Shown here piece by piece: positions 17,954 to 25,906 of a stretch of 25,906 bases of DNA. The stretch's first letter is position 1. Each line of letters opens with the position of its first letter. Position numbers and translations under genes: made by a program. The notes beneath the pieces were generated by a model that searched no databases, was not told where the DNA came from, and saw nothing but the letters and a program-made list of their open reading frames with translations. The DNA comes from a virus (lineage: Duplodnaviria > Caudoviricetes), in the IMG/VR virus record IMGVR_UViG_3300012041_000059, positions 1-25,906 of that record; one strand, written 5' to 3'.

Positions 17954-18438
17954 ACAACGAGCACGCGTTTCTGGGGCTGATCGAGTTCGCCGAGGGCACG
18001 GCCGCGCGCGGCGGCGACCCTTACCGCGTGTGCTACAGCTACGCGCACACGATTCAGAGTTTTGCCGACCACCCGGCCATCACCGGCGAGTGGCTGGGCG
18101 AGCGGCTGTCCGACGAGATGTGCCGCAACGCGGGCCTGGGGCCCGGCTGCAAGAGCACGGCGGCGGGGCGCTACCAGCTCATCAAGCCCACCTGGCGCGG
18201 CATCCGCGACCGGCTGCGGCTGCCGAGCTTCGAGCCCGAGTGCCAGGACCGCGCGGCGCTGTACCTGATCACCAACCGCGGCGCGCTCGAGGATGTGCAC
18301 GCCGGGCGCATCAAGACGGCGCTGGCCAAGTGCGCGCCCGAGTGGGCCAGCCTGCCGGGCAACTTTGCGGGGCAGCCGCAGCGCCGGCAGGCTGAGCTGG
18401 TGGCCGCCTTCGAGCGCGCGGGCGGGGTGATGGCGTGA
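17938..18438 (+). CDS. Endolysin, lambda R-type lytic transglycosylase (GH104), 166 aa
   Basis: AFL.LI.FAEGT (catalytic Glu), FADHP, STAAGRYQ, F.PECQDRAAL, EWASLPG. True start is ATG 17938. Confidence 0.93.
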   Translation: MGDILNNEHAFLGLIEFAEGTAARGGDPYRVCYSYAHTIQSFADHPAITGEWLGERLSDEMCRNAGLGPGCKSTAAGRYQLIKPTWRGIRDRLRLPSFEPECQDRAALYLITNRGALEDVHAGRIKTALAKCAPEWASLPGNFAGQPQRRQAELVAAFERAGGVMA

Positions 18439-18454
18439 GCCATCGGGTGGCGTG

Positions 18455-18715
18455 ATGGCCAGGCACATCGTGTGGCGGCGCGACCGGACAGTGGCGGCGC
18501 TTGCGCCGCTTGCACTTGCGTGGGACGCAAGCCCCGGCGCGACGTCTTACAGGATTTACTGGGGCACCACGACGGGCGTCTACAGCGCGTCGCTCAACGT
18601 CGGCAACGTGACGAGTTACTCGCTGCCGGACCCCGGGCCGTCGTTCCGCTTCTTTGCAGTCTTCGCTCTGGACTCGGGTGGCGAGGGCCCTGCATCCAAT
18701 GAGTTCACCCGTTGA
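18455..18715 (+). CDS. Stand-alone fibronectin type III-like protein, about 86 aa
   Basis: LAWDASPGATSYRIYWGT..G.Y...VGNVTSY...FFAV.A.D.GGE.P.SNE FN3 pattern. Confidence 0.75.
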   Translation: MARHIVWRRDRTVAALAPLALAWDASPGATSYRIYWGTTTGVYSASLNVGNVTSYSLPDPGPSFRFFAVFALDSGGEGPASNEFTR

Positions 18716-18722
18716 GCAAACG

Positions 18723-19778
18723 ATGAAATATCTTGTCTACCTTGCAGCGCTGTTGCTGCTGCCCGTGGCGTTTGCGCAGCCGGCGGCGCCGGGCAACTTC
18801 CGCCTGGTGGTGGCAGGCCCGCCGACGCCGGCCTCGGTGGCGGCGCGCAACCTGCCGATTGTTGGCCCCATCACCACCACCAGCAACGGGCAGAGGATCG
18901 AGAACCTGCACATTCGCAGAACCTCAGGCACCGGGCCATGCATCACCGTGAACCACACCGGGGTGGTGATTCAGGACAACGAGATCGGGCCCTGTGGGGT
19001 GGCTGAGAGCACCGACAACAACGGGATAGTTTCTACTGGTGCAACAAACATCACCATCAGGCGCAACGTCATCCACGACGTTGCCAATGGTGCGTACCTG
19101 ACCTCTGCGGCCAACCCGTTCGTCTTCACCAAGAACTACGTCTATAACCTCCGCGGCCCGTGGCCGCGCGGCCAAGCCTTTCAGACAAACGGCATCACTG
19201 GTGGTACGGGGTCGAGCAAGGTCACATGCAACATCTCCGACACGAAGCCAGGGATCAGGTATGGCGTGGATCACAACGTCACCAACGTCGAGGACCACAT
19301 CAATCTGTACAACGCTACGGGGGTCGATTCAACAACTAATCGAATCGAGATTGCTTACAACAGGCTGCGCGGCGGGCATCCATCGAGCACTACCGGCTCT
19401 GGCATCAACTCTGGCGATGGGGCTTCGGGAGGTAACGTCTACTCCCACGACAACATCGTCGTCAACACGCGCAACTCGGCACTGGCCATAACGAACGGCA
19501 CCAACCACACGCACGACAACAACCGCGTCTATATGTCCCGCACCCCGTGGGCTGGCGTCGACTGGGGCGCAACCGGATGTTCCGTTTTGCAAGGTTTCGG
19601 GTCTGGCTCCGCAGGAACGTGCCACACGAACACCATATCGAACAACAGCGTCCGCGCGATCGGTCTCACATCGCACTGCGAGGGTTACTGCGTTGTGACA
19701 TACACCGACAACAACTGGACCGACACCAGCCTCACGGAAGCCATCTTCGACGAGGCGTGGACCTCGGACTGCAACTAG
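18723..19778 (+). CDS. Secreted right-handed parallel beta-helix protein (pectin-lyase-like, putative depolymerase), 351 aa
   Basis: Signal peptide MKYLVYLAALLLLPVAFA; Asn-ladder repeats (VVIQDNEI, ITIRRNVI, IEIAYNRL, YSHDNIV, TISNNSV). Confidence 0.82.
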   Translation: MKYLVYLAALLLLPVAFAQPAAPGNFRLVVAGPPTPASVAARNLPIVGPITTTSNGQRIENLHIRRTSGTGPCITVNHTGVVIQDNEIGPCGVAESTDNNGIVSTGATNITIRRNVIHDVANGAYLTSAANPFVFTKNYVYNLRGPWPRGQAFQTNGITGGTGSSKVTCNISDTKPGIRYGVDHNVTNVEDHINLYNATGVDSTTNRIEIAYNRLRGGHPSSTTGSGINSGDGASGGNVYSHDNIVVNTRNSALAITNGTNHTHDNNRVYMSRTPWAGVDWGATGCSVLQGFGSGSAGTCHTNTISNNSVRAIGLTSHCEGYCVVTYTDNNWTDTSLTEAIFDEAWTSDCN

Positions 19779-19782
19779 GGGC

Positions 19783-20133
19783 ATGAACATGCTAAGTCCG
19801 TGGCTGATCGTGGCCGCGCTGCTGGCGGTGGCCGGGGCCGGCTACACCGGCTTCGAGCTCGGCCGCGACGTGGAGCTGGCCACGCAGTACCGCGAGAACG
19901 ACGCCGCCACCAAGGCGGGCACGGCGGCCGCCGAGGCCGCGGCTCGGGCAATCTCAGGCTTGAAGGTGAACCATGTCACGATCCGCCAGCGCACCGACAC
20001 CATCACGCGCGAAGTGCCTGTGTATCGCGATTGCGTGCACGACGATCGCGTGTTCGACGCCATCAACGAGGCCCGCACCGGACAGGGCGCTGCTGCTGGC
20101 CAGCTGCCCGCCGCTTCAGCCGCTGGCCGATAA
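19783..20133 (+). CDS. Rz: Inner-membrane spanin (Rz-like), 116 aa
   Basis: N-terminal TM, Ala-rich helix, C-terminal EVPVYRDC; overlapped by a lipoprotein ORF in the +1 frame. Confidence 0.8.
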   Translation: MNMLSPWLIVAALLAVAGAGYTGFELGRDVELATQYRENDAATKAGTAAAEAAARAISGLKVNHVTIRQRTDTITREVPVYRDCVHDDRVFDAINEARTGQGAAAGQLPAASAAGR

Positions 20134-20245
20134 GACGTTCGGCGCCACCGCCACGGCGCTGATCGACACCTCGGTGCAATACCGCACCTGCAGGGCAGCG
20201 GCGCTGGCCGGCGTGCCCGACGTCGACGGCCCCGCGGCCAGGTGA
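19973..20245 (+). CDS. Rz1: Outer-membrane spanin lipoprotein (Rz1-like), overlapping Rz
   Basis: Lipobox-like TIAC, Pro-rich segment, SCPPL.PL.D.TFG...QYRTCRAA. Exact start uncertain. Confidence 0.78.
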   Translation: MSRSASAPTPSRAKCLCIAIACTTIACSTPSTRPAPDRALLLASCPPLQPLADKTFGATATALIDTSVQYRTCRAAALAGVPDVDGPAAR

Positions 20246-20249
20246 TGCG

Positions 20250-20684
20250 ATGGCCAAGAAAAAGCTCGTCACGGCCAAGGGTGTGCTCACCGACGCCGAG
20301 GTGGCGCAGTTCGACGCCGAGGTCAAGAAGTGGCAGACGCTGCTCAACCTGGGCGACTGGCGCATCGAGCGCTCCAAGAAGGCCGCCCGCAAGATGGTGA
20401 TGGCCGAGGTGGTGCGCCGCGAATTGGCGCACCGCCTGGCAAGCTACCGCCTCAACCGCGACTGGAGCAACGAGGAGCACATCACCGGCCGGTTGCTCGA
20501 GGAGATCGCGCTGCACGAGGTGCTGCACGTATTCCTGCACGAGCTGCTGGAGCACTCGGGCACCCCTGGCACCAGCGAATCGGACATCGAGGCGGCCGAG
20601 CACCGCGTTATCAACACGCTCACCCGCCTGCTGGTGCCTGACGATGCAATGCGACAGCTGCTGACGGCGTTGGGAGTGAAATAA
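20250..20684 (+). CDS. HExxH zinc-binding (metallopeptidase-like) protein, 144 aa
   Basis: WQTLLNL.DW.I; ALHEVLH motif with a downstream E (EHRVIN). Confidence 0.75.
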   Translation: MAKKKLVTAKGVLTDAEVAQFDAEVKKWQTLLNLGDWRIERSKKAARKMVMAEVVRRELAHRLASYRLNRDWSNEEHITGRLLEEIALHEVLHVFLHELLEHSGTPGTSESDIEAAEHRVINTLTRLLVPDDAMRQLLTALGVK

Positions 20685-20685
20685 G

Positions 20686-21954
20686 ATGCCAGCAACCACC
20701 CTCACCGACCGCCAGGCGCGCCTGGCCGCCGAGGCCTACAAGCGCCTGGGCGGCGAGGGGCACAAGCTGCTCTCTGGCGTGGGCATCAAGGCGTTCGACT
20801 CGCGCGTGCGCGTGGCGGTGGAGCGAGGCTTCGTGACGCGCGCCGAGCGCCGCACGGTGCCGCCCGACACGCCGATGCCAAACATCGAGGAGGCGCCGCC
20901 GCCGCCAGCGCCGCCACCGATGGCCGCGCCGGTGGCCGACGTGGACGGGCTGCGCAAGACGCTGAGCCGGGGCGCCTTCACGATTGCCGAGCTGGCCGAG
21001 CGGATGCAGCAGTCGCGCGGCGCGGTGCTCGACGCCATCGACGCCATGGTGGCGTCGGGCGTGAACGTGCAGGAGCACGGCGGGGTGTTCAGCATCCAGC
21101 ACACGCCGGCGCCCAAGCACCAGGCCGACAGCAAGAAGCTGCCCGAATACCGCAGCCGGCCCGACGGCACGTACCTGTTCGGCTTCACCAGCGACAACCA
21201 CCTGTGCAGCAAGTACGCACGCGAGGATGTGCTGGACGACCTCTACACCAAGTTTGCCGCGCAGGGCGTGGACCGCGTGTTCAATGCCGGCAACTGGGTC
21301 GACGGCGAGGCATCGTTCAACGTGCACGACCTGCTGGTGCACGGCATGGACCGGCAGATCAAGTACCTGGCCGAGCGCTACCCGCAGCGGCCTGGCATCG
21401 TGACGCACGCGATCGCCGGCAACGACCACGAGGGCTGGTGGTGCAAGCGCGAAGGCGTGGACATCGGCCGCTACGCCGAGACGGCGATGCGCGACGCCGG
21501 GCGCACCGACTGGGTGGACCTGGGCTACATGGAGGCCTACGTGCGCCTGGTGCACGCCAAGAGCGGCGAGAGCACGATGCTGCACCTGATGCACCCCGGC
21601 GGCGGCAGCGCCTACGCCATCAGCTACACGGTGCAAAAGATCGTGGAGGGCTACGACGGTGGCGAAAAGCCCGCGGTTCTGCTGGCCGGGCACTACCACA
21701 AGCTGAGCTACAACATGGTGCGCAACGTGCACGCGATCCAGACCGGCACGACCGAGGATCAAACGCCGTTCATGCGCCAGAAGAAGCTGGCGGCGCACGT
21801 GGGCGGCGGCATCTGCCAGCTGACCCAAGACCCCGCGACGGGCGCCATCGTGGCGTGCCGAGTGGAGTTTTTCAACTACTTCGTCAAGGACTACTACAAC
21901 GGCCGCTGGTCGATGTCGGGCGACGTGACGCTAGCGGATCGGATGCCTGGATGA
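20686..21954 (+). CDS. Calcineurin-like metallophosphoesterase with N-terminal HTH, 422 aa
   Basis: SDNH, AGNWVDG, AGNDHE, MHPGGG, AGHYH; HTH-like TIAELAERMQQSRGAVLDAI after a Pro-rich linker. Confidence 0.88.
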   Translation: MPATTLTDRQARLAAEAYKRLGGEGHKLLSGVGIKAFDSRVRVAVERGFVTRAERRTVPPDTPMPNIEEAPPPPAPPPMAAPVADVDGLRKTLSRGAFTIAELAERMQQSRGAVLDAIDAMVASGVNVQEHGGVFSIQHTPAPKHQADSKKLPEYRSRPDGTYLFGFTSDNHLCSKYAREDVLDDLYTKFAAQGVDRVFNAGNWVDGEASFNVHDLLVHGMDRQIKYLAERYPQRPGIVTHAIAGNDHEGWWCKREGVDIGRYAETAMRDAGRTDWVDLGYMEAYVRLVHAKSGESTMLHLMHPGGGSAYAISYTVQKIVEGYDGGEKPAVLLAGHYHKLSYNMVRNVHAIQTGTTEDQTPFMRQKKLAAHVGGGICQLTQDPATGAIVACRVEFFNYFVKDYYNGRWSMSGDVTLADRMPG

Positions 21955-22391
21955 GCGACACCAAGGCCACCAATCCGAAGGATGCGGTGGGCATCCGCAA
22001 GGCGCCGCTGTCGTGCCTGCCGATCCGCGTGCTGTGGCGCGTGGGGCTGGCGATGCTCGAGGGGGCGCTGAAGTACGGGCGCCACAACTACCGCGGCTGC
22101 GGGGTGCGGGCGTCGGTGTACTTCGACGCGTCGCTGCGGCACAAGCTGGCGTGGTGGGAGGGCGAAGACATCGACCCCGACTCGACGCTGCACCACCTGG
22201 ACAAGGAGATCGCGTGCCTCATGGTGCTGCGCGACTCGATGCTGCTCAGCAACTGGGTGGACGATCGGCCGCCGAGCTCGCGCGAGAACATGGCGGCGCT
22301 GCACCAGCACGCGTCGATGCTGATCGACCGCTACGCCACGATCGAGCCGGCGCCCAAGCACTGGACGATCGACGACCGGGTGGCCAAGTGA
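21951..22391 (+). CDS. dATP/dGTP diphosphohydrolase N-terminal domain protein (DUF5664-like), 146 aa
   Basis: TNPKDAVGIRKAPL, GALKYGRHNYR, SVYFDA..RH..AWWEGEDIDPDS.LHHL, DDRPP. ATGA overlap at 21951. Confidence 0.88.
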   Translation: MSDTKATNPKDAVGIRKAPLSCLPIRVLWRVGLAMLEGALKYGRHNYRGCGVRASVYFDASLRHKLAWWEGEDIDPDSTLHHLDKEIACLMVLRDSMLLSNWVDDRPPSSRENMAALHQHASMLIDRYATIEPAPKHWTIDDRVAK

Positions 22392-22636
22392 ACCAGACGC
22401 GGCTGGGCTCGCTCATCGAGGCGGGCGTCAACATCGTGGTCGGCTTCAGCATCAACTGGGTGGCCAACCTCCTGATCCTGCCGCTGTTCGGCTTCAACGT
22501 CACGGGCGTGCAGGCGTTCAACATCGGCCTGTTCTTCACGGCCATCAGCCTGGCGCGCAGCTACGTGATCCGGCGCTGGTTCAACGCCGGCATGCGGGGC
22601 TTTTCGCAGCGCCTGGCAAAGCGGCTGCACACCTGA
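22388..22636 (+). CDS. Small 2-TM phage membrane protein (DUF7220-like), 82 aa
   Basis: QTRLGSLIEA.VNIVVGF...FT.ISLARSYVIRRWFN; GTG 22388 overlaps the previous stop. Confidence 0.8.
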   Translation: MNQTRLGSLIEAGVNIVVGFSINWVANLLILPLFGFNVTGVQAFNIGLFFTAISLARSYVIRRWFNAGMRGFSQRLAKRLHT

Positions 22637-22678
22637 ATGCCCGACGCGGGGCCGTAGGCGCCCCGCTGCTCAACGAAC

Positions 22679-22722
22679 AGCCGCCCCGCCGCACCCTTAG
22701 GTGCCGGTGGGGCGGCTTTTTT
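22679..22722 (+). terminator. Intrinsic terminator of the late operon
   Basis: AGCCGCCCC-GCC-GCACC / CTTA loop / GGTGC-CGGT-GGGGCGGCT followed by a T run. Confidence 0.88.
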
Positions 22723-22763
22723 GCGTTGTGGGGCGGCTATTCGCGGCGGGTATTAGCGTAGCC

Positions 22764-22892
22764 TCACCCCTCGGCACAAGCAAACACCCCAGCCAAGAGA
22801 GCGGCTGCGACGATAAAGGCGTAGAAGTCGTCTGATTCGACGAGCCGCCAGAAGTCGTCCATGGGGCGCCGCCACTTCATGGCCGGCGTCAT
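22764..22892 (-). CDS. Unannotated small membrane protein, 42 aa (MTPAMKWRRPMDDFWRLVESDDFYAFIVAAALLAGVFACAEG)
   Basis: ATGA overlap with the upstream lipoprotein ORF; C-terminal hydrophobic helix. Confidence 0.55.
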   Translation of the reverse strand: MTPAMKWRRPMDDFWRLVESDDFYAFIVAAALLAGVFACAEG

Positions 22893-23020
22893 CGGCAGAC
22901 GCCCGAGGCCGCGCAGTTGGGGGGGTCGAGCGTGGCCCGGTCGGGCTCGAGCTCGGGGTCGCCGCCGCCGCAGGCGGCAAGAATTGCAGACAGAACTACA
23001 AGCGCGAGCAGCTTCTTCAC
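22889..23020 (-). CDS. Unannotated small lipoprotein, 43 aa (MKKLLALVVLSAILAA|CGGGDPELEPDRATLDPPNCAASGVCR)
   Basis: GTG start with AAGGGGA SD; textbook signal peptide II with an LAAC lipobox; Cys pair in the mature part. Confidence 0.8.
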   Translation of the reverse strand: MKKLLALVVLSAILAACGGGDPELEPDRATLDPPNCAASGVCR

Positions 23021-23053
23021 GGCATCCCCTTAGATGCCATGAGCCGATGCCGC

Positions 23054-23221
23054 TGCTACTCAGGTGCTACGAGCAGCCGCCGTGCCCTCTGGGTGCTATC
23101 CATTGAACTACGGCGGGCGGCACCAGCACATGGCCGGTGTTTACGAGGTGAACAGTCTAGCGGATTCTGGCCGCTTATGGGCATATCATCGAGGCGGTGC
23201 TACCAACTCGGGGCCGTAGCA
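23054..23221. other. attP region with repeated TGCTAC putative integrase-binding sites
   Basis: TGCTAC at 23054, 23065 (11-bp tandem spacing) and 23198, TGCTAT at 23094, inverted GTAGCA at 23216. These flank a tRNA-like core in non-coding DNA just upstream of int. Confidence 0.7.
23096..23117 (-). other. att core = 5' fragment of a tRNA (probably tRNA-Arg): CCCGCCGTAGTTCAATGGATAG
   Basis: Reads as a 7-nt acceptor strand + U8A9 + D-arm GTTC-AATGGATA-G, then loses tRNA similarity. No anticodon or T arm. The Arg(CCT) identity is recalled, not searched. Confidence 0.72.
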
Positions 23222-23222
23222 G

Positions 23223-24254
23223 ATGCCGTCGGTCATCAAGGTGAGGGATAAGTGGCGCGCCCAGGTGCGCCGCAAGGGGCACGCGCCGCAGTGTCGCACC
23301 TTCGCCAAGAAGTCCCAAGCGGACAAGTGGGCGCGCGAGCTGGAGGCGGCGATCGACGCCGGCACGCCGGCGCAGGCGCTGACGGCCCACGGACGCGGGC
23401 TCACGGTGGCCGGCGTCGACCACGAGTACCGCAAGCTGCGCGATGGCACGGCGCGGCCGATCGGCGACGCGAGCAATGAGCACTACATGCTGCGCCACCT
23501 GGCGCGGCTGCTGGGCGACCGCGCTGCGGCCTCACTGGTGCCGGCCGACCTGGTGGGCTACTGCAAGGCGCGGCGCGACGAGGGCGCGGGCCCGTACACG
23601 TTGAATATGGAGATGAGCAAGCTGGGCACGGCGCTGCGCTACGTGGCCGCGGCGCTGCACCTGCAGCTGCCGTCGGTGGTGGCCGACGCGCGGCCGCTGC
23701 TGGCGCACCTGGGGCTCATCGGTGGGGGTGGGCGGCGCGAGCGGCGGCCCACCGAGGACGAGCTCACCGCGATCGTGGCGCACCTGACGGCCAAGCGCGG
23801 GCAGCTCTATGCCGACGTGGTGCTGTTTGCGGTGGCCACGGCGATGCGGCGCTCGGAGATCGCGCGCATTCGGTGGCCGGACGTCGACGAGGCCAAGCGC
23901 CTGGTGCTGGTGCGCGGCCGCAAAGACCCGCGGCGCAAGGACAACGACCAGTGGGTGCCGTTGCTACCGGCTGCGTGGGAGGTGCTACAGGAGCAGCCGC
24001 GCGAGGCGGGCGCAGTGCGGATTTTTCCGGTGGACCTGTCGACGGTGTCGAAGTATTTCACCTGGGCGTGCAGGGAGCTGGGGATACCGGACCTGCATTT
24101 TCACGACCTGCGGCACGAGGGCACTAGCCGGCTGTTTGAAGAGGGTTTCGGCATCCAGCAGGTGGCGCTGGTGACGGGGCACCGCGACTGGCGGCACCTG
24201 CGGCGCTACACGAACCTCAGGCCGGAGGATGTGCACCGGGGGCCGGCGGGTTAG
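23223..24254 (+). CDS. int: Tyrosine recombinase / phage integrase, 343 aa
   Basis: N-terminal arm-binding WRAQVRRKG; catalytic R (MRRSEI), K (RKDP), HDLRH, TGH, Y (RRYTN). Confidence 0.96.
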   Translation: MPSVIKVRDKWRAQVRRKGHAPQCRTFAKKSQADKWARELEAAIDAGTPAQALTAHGRGLTVAGVDHEYRKLRDGTARPIGDASNEHYMLRHLARLLGDRAAASLVPADLVGYCKARRDEGAGPYTLNMEMSKLGTALRYVAAALHLQLPSVVADARPLLAHLGLIGGGGRRERRPTEDELTAIVAHLTAKRGQLYADVVLFAVATAMRRSEIARIRWPDVDEAKRLVLVRGRKDPRRKDNDQWVPLLPAAWEVLQEQPREAGAVRIFPVDLSTVSKYFTWACRELGIPDLHFHDLRHEGTSRLFEEGFGIQQVALVTGHRDWRHLRRYTNLRPEDVHRGPAG

Positions 24255-24882
24255 GCTCGGCCTGGGGTGGTGCCCCGATAGGTGCAGCAGCGCCGCAGAT
24301 GCAATCATCGTCATTGTTGCCCCCGCCTACGCCAAGACACGCGAGCGAGTGCTTGGGCGCAACCTGTGGTGCCTGTGCCCCCCTATCCCACTGAGCGAGC
24401 GCATCTTCTCCGTGGGCATGAAGGAACGTGCGAATGTCCGGCGTGGCAATCTCCCCACGTATCATGGCGACGTGAACCAAGGTCGGGTCTTGCAGCTGGC
24501 GCATGATGTCGGCCTGTGGTGCCTGTGGGGATGCGGCGAGCGCATCAATTGCGGCGTGGAGTGCGGCCAGTGTTTCTGGGCGTTCTTGCGAGCATCGGTA
24601 AATCTTATTCGCCAGCCGCTTCGCCTCATCGGGCGCCACCTGTAGCGGTGGTCCCCACGCCCAGCAGCCTTCTGCATGGGTGGTTTGGGGTGGGGCCGAT
24701 AGCGCGGCTTCAGCGGCTGCCCAGGCAAGAGGCTTGCGCCTGGCATAGTCAGCGCGCATGTCTTCCCATTTGGCCATGCTCATGCCGACTAGACCATCAG
24801 GGTGCTTGGCTTCTTCAATCAGGAATTTCAACCTCTTGAGCGCCACCAACTCAGCGAGCGCTGCGCGTACTGAATCACTCAT
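24217..24882 (-). CDS. Modular early-region hypothetical protein (Ea22/Ead-like mosaic), about 221 aa
   Basis: Start reassigned to ATG 24882 (GGGGGAG SD); short modules joined by APPQ/QAPQ linkers; 3' end overlaps int by 38 nt. Confidence 0.65.
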   Translation of the reverse strand: MSDSVRAALAELVALKRLKFLIEEAKHPDGLVGMSMAKWEDMRADYARRKPLAWAAAEAALSAPPQTTHAEGCWAWGPPLQVAPDEAKRLANKIYRCSQERPETLAALHAAIDALAASPQAPQADIMRQLQDPTLVHVAMIRGEIATPDIRTFLHAHGEDALAQWDRGAQAPQVAPKHSLACLGVGGGNNDDDCICGAAAPIGAPPQAEPNPPAPGAHPPA

Positions 24883-24898
24883 GACGACTCCCCCAGGG

Positions 24899-25132
24899 TT
24901 ACGTGGCCTCGGCCGACGCCTGATCCCGCAGCGCCTCGAGGCGCTCGGCGACATCGCGCGAGTCGGCGAAGCGGCGGCCGCCGTCGAGGTAGGTGCGCAC
25001 GCCGAGCGTGCCGTCGCCCACCTTGTTATTCACGGTGCTGGCGCCGAGTTTGAGCACGTCGGCCAGCTCTTTCATGTTGAGCCGCGGGCCGTAGCGCTCG
25101 AGCAGCCAGGCTTCTTTGAGAAGGGCGCTCAC
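24899..25132 (-). CDS. Excisionase-like winged-HTH DNA-binding protein, 77 aa
   Basis: GTG 25132 overlaps the upstream stop; LLERYGPRLNMKELADVLKLGASTVNNKV; near int, convergent with it. Confidence 0.75.
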   Translation of the reverse strand: MSALLKEAWLLERYGPRLNMKELADVLKLGASTVNNKVGDGTLGVRTYLDGGRRFADSRDVAERLEALRDQASAEAT

Positions 25133-25647
25133 GGGTACACCTTGGCCAGGTCCGCGCGCACGGCCTTGCCGCGCCGGCGCAGCACGTTGGAGAATCTGCG
25201 GACGGCTCGGGCGCGACCTTCGTAGCTCTTGTGGTAGTAGTTCTGGACGCCGTGGTGGAAGAGCTGGCCCCACGCGGACGAGCCATCGGACTCGTACTGC
25301 TCGCTGCTCCAGTACCACGCGGCTTCGAACTTGCGCTTGAGGTTGGCGTACAGCAGCGCCTGCTCTTGCCGCGTGGGCAGCTCGCCGCCGATCTCGGCCG
25401 CCCAGGCCTTGGCCTGCTCCCAGGTGACGCCGTCGTTCTGGCCGGGCACCAGCACCAGGTGGTGGCTGAAGTTGCCGTCGGCGTCGAGCACGATGCCGGC
25501 GTAGCGCTCGCCGGGGGCGAGCGCGATCTCGGCCTCGTCGATGACGTAGGCCACCGGCGCGCCGCGTTGCGCGGCTTCGAGGTCGGCGATCATCCGGGCG
25601 AGCTTGGTCTGCTCGGCCTTCACGTGTTCGAGTGTGATGGTGGGCAT
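25129..25647 (-). CDS. DUF1566/Lcl (C-type-lectin-fold) protein, DGR target A, 172 aa, with a foreign 20-aa C-terminal tail
   Basis: GERYAGI, TWEQAKAWA..GGELPTRQEQALLYANLK, WYWSS, AW.Q.F..G.Q....KS.E.RARAVRR. Confidence 0.88.
   Translation of the reverse strand: MPTITLEHVKAEQTKLARMIADLEAAQRGAPVAYVIDEAEIALAPGERYAGIVLDADGNFSHHLVLVPGQNDGVTWEQAKAWAAEIGGELPTRQEQALLYANLKRKFEAAWYWSSEQYESDGSSAWGQLFHHGVQNYYHKSYEGRARAVRRFSNVLRRRGKAVRADLAKVYP
25198..25288 (-). repeat. DGR variable repeat VR-A (91 bp)
   Basis: 78/91 identical to 25704-25794 without gaps; all mismatches are in positions 1-2 of NNC codons; the last 34 bp (coding sense) are identical. Confidence 0.85.
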
Positions 25648-25682
25648 GTGCGCCTCGTTGTGGTGTTAAAGGATCGAAGGAT

Positions 25683-25906
25683 TCAAGAACCGATGGGAAT
25701 CAAGCGGACGGCTCGGGCGCGACCTTCGTAGCTCTTGAGGAGGTCGTACTGGTAGCCGTCGTCGAAGTTCTGGCTCCACGCGAACGAGCCATCGTCTTCG
25801 TGCGGCTCGCACGTCCAGTGCAAGCGAGGCTCGAACTCTCTCTTGAGGTTGGCGTACAGCAGCGCGGCCACGGAGCGCGTGGGCAACTCGGCCTCGAGCT
25901 TGGCGG
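25683..25906 (-). CDS. DUF1566/Lcl protein, DGR target B (5' part outside the window)
   Basis: ELPTRSVAALLYANLK...HWT...AWSQNFDDGYQYDLLKSYEGRARAVRLIP; paralogue of target A. Confidence 0.85.
   Translation of the reverse strand, partial: AKLEAELPTRSVAALLYANLKREFEPRLHWTCEPHEDDGSFAWSQNFDDGYQYDLLKSYEGRARAVRLIPIGS
25704..25794 (-). repeat. DGR variable repeat VR-B (91 bp)
   Basis: Partner of 25198-25288; followed after the stop by ATCCTTCGATCCTTT. Confidence 0.85.

Follow-up and report, generated by a model that had tools for sequence, protein, structure and literature searches.

The window spans an entire viral contig (25,906 nt) and carries at its right end, on the minus strand, two Lcl_C/DUF1566-like genes, target B and target A. 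The second of these is fused to the end of a DGR RT, and avd, TR and the rest of the RT have been lost from the contig after a period in which the element was active. To judge from its sequence, the locus is a DGR relic of the Magia-type (DUF1566) phage family and not a functional DGR. Probably a single deletion of about 1.7 kb removed the core of the cassette, the RT end was kept for the sake of the adjoining xis-like gene, and the variants were frozen. With a completeness of about 41%, the contig lacks some 59% of the genome; its tape-measure, tail-fibre, endolysin and integrase genes, the last encoding a tyrosine integrase (23223..24254, plus strand), indicate that the phage is tailed and temperate. 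Among named carriers of related cassettes, the nearest are mostly Burkholderiales, for example Rubrivivax MAGs.

The target genes and the RT-derived tail

Target A (25129..25647, minus strand; 172 aa) consists of an N-terminal helix, a C-type-lectin-fold domain and the fused RT tail. Its ORF, read from 25647 to 25129, ends ...RARAVRRFSNVLRRRGKAVRADLAKVYP*, which is 20 residues beyond RAVRRF. Target B (25683..25906, minus strand) is cut by the contig end and has a normal C-terminus, with the stop directly after RAVRLIPIGS. Both fall below the Pfam cut-off for Lcl_C (target A, E 1.5e-5 and 25.7 bits under a cut-off of 34.9; target B, E 0.011). Among 119 homologues the terminal RAVR motif was found by regular expression in 113, P0006 being one of the six missed, and 112 of these 113 end at most 8 residues past the motif; the exception, P0015, has a tail that is not RT-like.

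The origin of the tail of target A is established by a profile of RT C-termini (22 RTs of related loci), which among 121 proteins matched only P0006 (E 9e-12) and target A (P0001, E 4e-5), the next match having an E value of only 0.87. The tail also matches the very end of an ORF that lies, in related viral loci, about 2 kb beyond the target on its downstream side, and all three such ORFs that were scanned contain Pfam RVT_1 (E 5e-14 or better). The resemblance to a DGR RT C-terminus proposed in the first-pass annotation is thus confirmed. P0006 is another in-frame target-RT fusion, 67% identical to target A and with nearly the same RT tail. An exact-tail pattern search of viral contigs gave no matches, the xis-like query gave no confirmed relatives in viral contigs, and a region search with target A residues 133-172 gave four candidates and no new RT fusion.

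The closest relative is a metagenome contig (L063), which is 82-84% identical to the window over the tail, the xis-like gene and the integrase, and in which the RT continues upstream of the junction position for about 35 more clearly RT-like codons. It holds only about 55-70 RT codons in all and its first 370 nt or so are unrelated, so it does not prove that an intact parent existed and may be a relic or chimera in its own right.

The AlphaFold model of target A (pLDDT 79.6) has a lectin-fold core and a tail mostly below 50. The lectin domain covers about residues 36-152 and the lectin matches span residues 36-155; lectin folds head the list of structural matches (8oks, Z 8.1, rmsd 3.1 over 91 residues; Lcl 8q4e, Z 6.7, rmsd 4.8 over 101 residues; Mtd, Z 4.9). 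These Z values are middling; the target-family profile also matches 8q4e (E 4e-5). Target A is accordingly modelled as a C-type lectin fold with a C-terminal VR, and the 20-residue tail is predicted to be a passive, disordered appendage outside that fold.

The deletion junction

Identity to L063 starts at C25190 and identity to related target ends reaches about 25189, which places the junction at 25189..25190 (minus strand) within a 2-nt overlap (CC) assignable to the target end or to the RT, instead of at 25191/25192 as first annotated. Targets of the family end in a short codon pattern followed by a stop, and the RT has a conserved Ala-Asn. The Ser codon at the junction is a hybrid in which CC is common to both, an overlap that rests on the inferred parental codon. 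The fusion of target A to an RT end thus stands as first described, while its RT-derived part (25129..25188, minus strand) shrinks from the 20 codons then proposed to the last 19 codons and the stop.

What is missing amounts to about 1.7 kb: the target stop codon, the downstream motif, avd, TR and most of the RT. The equivalent span is 1683 nt in L038, and the distance from VR end to RT stop in relatives has a median of 1756 nt (n=107); a direct intact parent of the window cassette was not found among the relatives examined. The contig (about 41% complete) has no RVT_1 match, its only RT sequence being the C-terminal remnant; a profile of 24 Avd proteins, run over 4.5 kb of the cassette strand, gave no match; and only VR-A and VR-B were recovered in the search for a TR, which covered repeats in 18000-25906 and all six frames of the window with the target profile. 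An HNH profile was likewise without match in the stretch of the window scanned, target A and the RT tail being joined directly, and no promoter-like or terminator-like sites were found in 24800-25906. The proposal of an in-frame deletion of avd-TR-RT is supported. One illegitimate recombination at the 2-nt overlap probably removed avd, TR and all but 19 RT codons. A TR-derived junction, in which VR-TR recombination came first, was considered and rejected, since the sequence that follows the anchor agrees with the VR pattern and not with that of the TR.

The junction is bridged without mismatch by sequence other than the window's own contig (L047, which was left out of this count). A 232-nt contig of run X2 covers 25074-25305 with 0 mismatches and more than 110 nt on each side, and assembly L057 is 100% identical over 23923-25564. 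The depth of the bridging contigs is low (2.5 in X2), and runs and assemblies may share samples.

Variable repeats and recent activity

VR-A (25198..25284) and VR-B (25704..25790), both of 87 nt on the minus strand, were compared with each other and with the TRs of relatives. They differ at 13 positions over 87 nt, and all 13 are at TR adenines (p about 2e-7) when each of five relatives' TRs is taken as proxy for the TR; there are no differences at the other sites, about 60 in number, while the 90 nt just upstream hold 27 mismatches. Since all the differences lie at template adenines, the DGR worked until recently. Both variable genes are now likely frozen in their last mutated state.

In intact relatives, 170 of 225 VRs but only 10 of 104 TRs have an AT-rich repeat with a period of 8 nt directly after them. 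It is present after VR-B, as two ATCCTT copies 8 nt apart (25669..25682, minus strand), and absent after VR-A. The suggestion that VR-A had lost its 3' element is supported: the downstream repeat is gone, and the invariant 33-nt 3' end of the VR itself is retained. By its position, this post-VR direct repeat is a candidate target-recognition element, and the contrast between VR-A and VR-B points to a candidate element of a non-hairpin kind. In the Bordetella phage BPP-1, whose DGR shares the Avd-TR-RT machinery with the window's family, sequence just downstream of VR is described as required for homing (PMC3240598). BPP-1 has a GC-rich hairpin there, whereas the window's family has the AT-rich direct repeat at the same place, in what may be a similar role.

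Retention of the RT end

The xis-like HTH gene (24899..25132, minus strand; 77 aa; HTH_17 E 0.019, below cut-off) has a GTG start that overlaps the RT stop (GTGA). Its orthologue in L063 is 75% identical with the same stop/start overlap, and an AAGG lies in the RT remnant at 25143-25140, 7 nt before the xis-like start. An overlap between the RT stop and the next start (ATGA/GTGA/TTGA) occurs in 78 of 107 intact loci and in 10 of 14 that keep the tail, and in the Magia annotation the RBS of the next gene lies inside the RT end. The RT tail was likely kept because the RT stop overlaps the start of the next gene: its last bases would have survived as carriers of a putative ribosome-binding site and of the stop/start overlap of the xis-like gene.

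Loss of DGR machinery among relatives

We classified 184 target-bearing loci (sets of 37, 3 and 143 new, plus the window; 33 pattern hits were left out), which dereplication at 95% reduced to 161. The intact order target(s)-avd-TR-RT is found in 108 of the 184, and in 93 after dereplication, with one locus (L022) counted as intact having a split RT. The remaining dereplicated loci comprise 5 clean deletions that keep the tail (the window, L012, L112/L116, L142 and L182), 7 loci in which an HNH gene replaces the core and the RT tail is kept, 3 with only the 5' side kept, 3 tandem and 4 single full-length targets without machinery, 28 short targets standing alone, many of them in Massilia chromosomes, and 18 loci cut by contig ends. 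Dead cassettes, deleted or replaced, thus make up 15 of the 108 distinct related cassettes with any machinery (7 of them by HNH), or roughly one in seven, with many independent breakpoints. About 20 Massilia-group records (L183-L212) carry one short Lcl_C gene each and lack DGR machinery in the 4 kb that follow; these genes may be domesticated orphans.

An RT-tail query among proteins of 100-321 residues returned 53 proteins, including 15 avd-RT fusions (one being the query), 2 target-RT fusions and 3 RT-internal deletions; others are RT fragments or have foreign N-termini, and P0006 is counted in addition. P0166 and P0167 are, like P0006, in-frame target-RT fusions, with different breakpoints. 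P0124 (L142:3006-3554) and P0176 are near-identical sequences with different avd-RT deletions, that of P0176 enclosing that of P0124. The L142 and L182 junctions show short overlaps of about 8-12 nt. Clustering of the right breakpoints in the last 90 RT codons (p=0.003 for the 4 clean deletions found through targets, against a uniform null) is not claimed, because the RT parts of the fusions start anywhere from about position 167 to 359 of 386. Two of those 4 clean deletions have in-frame junctions, which is no excess, and the target-RT fusion itself therefore bears no sign of selection. Deletions of this kind arise repeatedly in this family and would persist because the phage can do without the core, or because the core becomes a cost after a suitable variant has been obtained. 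Losses of the opposite type were also seen (L077 after 4835, L082:1387-1713 and L117:5277-5624), their forms being a TR cut short, an RT start fused to a downstream gene and an RT truncated after about 113 codons.

HNH genes in place of the core and alternative explanations

HNH_3 genes replace TR-RT or avd-TR-RT at L090:4560-5015, L093:4272-4907, L100:4463-4912, L106/L161:4471-4920, L123:5061-5540 and L086:3223-3714 (the same insert occurs in L134). They are of two types, one with NUMOD4, and roughly 35-100 RT codons are kept downstream of them. An extra ORF accompanies the HNH gene in some loci, matching DUF3077 in one (L123:4505-5068) and without Pfam match in another (L093:3661-4272). It is a speculative and rather doubtful proposal that the DGR core of this family of betaproteobacterial phages is disposable and repeatedly lost under positive selection, which would lock in a variant, with HNH homing endonucleases actively turning DGR-bearing phages into DGR-less ones. 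The homology arms for such conversion would be the target and the RT tail, the latter being obligatory, and a selfish nuclease would then be a driver of DGR loss.

For the window itself, an unlikely alternative is that the loss took two steps, an HNH homing-endonuclease gene first replacing avd-TR-RT, with target and RT tail serving as the flanking homology, or by cutting followed by end-joining, and being lost later. In seven distinct related loci an HNH_3 gene separates the RT tail from the target (or avd); in L090, L106 and L139 the left edge, judged by eye, is about 11-14 nt past the VR anchor, which is close to the 7-9 nt of the window; L139 retains a decayed HNH piece directly after the target; and the nested deletions of P0176 and P0124 fit serial trimming. 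The window junction, however, holds no HNH residue, the HNH profile had no match in the flanks of the 108 intact loci, and clean deletions with scattered endpoints are numerous, so that one step suffices.

Somewhat less probable still is that VR-B, and with lower likelihood VR-A, continues to be diversified by a cognate TR, Avd and RT supplied in trans from the unseen part of the genome or a co-resident prophage. VR-B retains both its invariant 3' segment and the post-VR motif, and avd-TR-brt expressed in trans is reported to work experimentally (PMC5758913). In addition, run X2 holds a VR that is related, ends normally and is about 80% alike, but its differences include a non-adenine site and the upstream sequence, so it belongs to another phage; it shows that kin are present, not that kin complement. 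On the opposite side, VR-A has the same sequence in X1, X2 and L057, as does VR-B in X1 and X3, no variants of either were found in three low-depth runs (contigs drop rare alleles), and no second RT gene turned up in any of 37 loci for which both strands were profiled.

That the RT tail gives target A a new function is very improbable. In-frame target-RT fusions do recur (the window, P0006, P0166 and P0167), but their breakpoints vary, the last three lack part or most of the lectin domain, P0001 and P0006 are each a singleton cluster, the tail is predicted to be disordered, and out-of-frame deletions also exist (L012, L112). Mis-assembly of the junction, which the lack of a contig over 24914-25201 in run X1 might suggest, is the least credible of all, given the two bridging contigs, a 2-nt overlap that cannot make a k-mer join, and an X1 break at 25202 that falls in the 33-nt repeat common to both VRs; the X1 gap is uninformative.

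Comparison with known systems

Of the intact elements described, that of Burkholderia phage Magia (MT701587; PMC7883833) is the closest. Like the window, it has a tandem pair of short lectin-fold genes in the early region; its target is about 51% identical and its order is target-target-avd-RT. Whereas the Magia DGR is intact, the window has lost avd, TR and about 95% of the RT and has the RT end joined to target A. The category 'd'/CLec2 DGRs of Wu et al. (PMC5758913) share short DUF1566-only targets and adenine-specific VRs with the window, but the accessible part of that report gives no account of cassette loss, fusions or retained RT tails; it does state that over half of the candidate DGRs were discarded as broken or incomplete.

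In Epsilon crAss-like phages, RTs are described as fragmented or deleted while the target gene and VR are kept, as in the window (PMC11054128; cited in PMC12386605); as far as the accessible text goes, these differ in host phylum, have receptor-binding proteins as targets and come without breakpoint analysis. In the sections available, Schillinger and Zingler suggest DGR loss in culture (PMC3575424), a 2026 preprint (10.64898/2026.02.18.706561) models loss by the decay of TR adenines, with loss of the RT left to later models, and Roux et al. treat DGR activity, not deletion; a term search of the gut DGR preprint yielded nothing relevant. A literature search, with supplements and most subscription papers outside its scope, turned up no paper on RT-tail fusions or on DGRs replaced by HNH genes. 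Dead DGRs are already in print, and the window represents a real but ordinary, often repeated way of cassette death.

The locus is a clean, recent snapshot of a dying DGR whose value lies in being one of a set, and the repeated loss across the family is more interesting than this one locus. The set of dead cassettes forms a natural series on the question of when hypermutation is worth keeping. DGR searches anchored on the RT would miss such relics.

Neighbouring regions of the contig

An insert of about 630 nt at 24258-24890, between the integrase and the xis-like gene, is missing in L063; its ORF has no Pfam or PHROG match, and related contigs of run X1 skip 87-88 nt inside it. Upstream of the integrase, a stretch at 23090-23120 resembles a tRNA D-arm and could be attP; an attP in the form of a tRNA fragment near 23100 is unsupported by ARAGORN, Rfam and comparison with the fetched loci. 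At 20686-22391, a 422-aa gene, in which a metallophosphoesterase-like motif set is apparent by eye and which has no Pfam match at the cut-off, adjoins a dATP/dGTP diphosphohydrolase gene (PF18909, E 2e-23).
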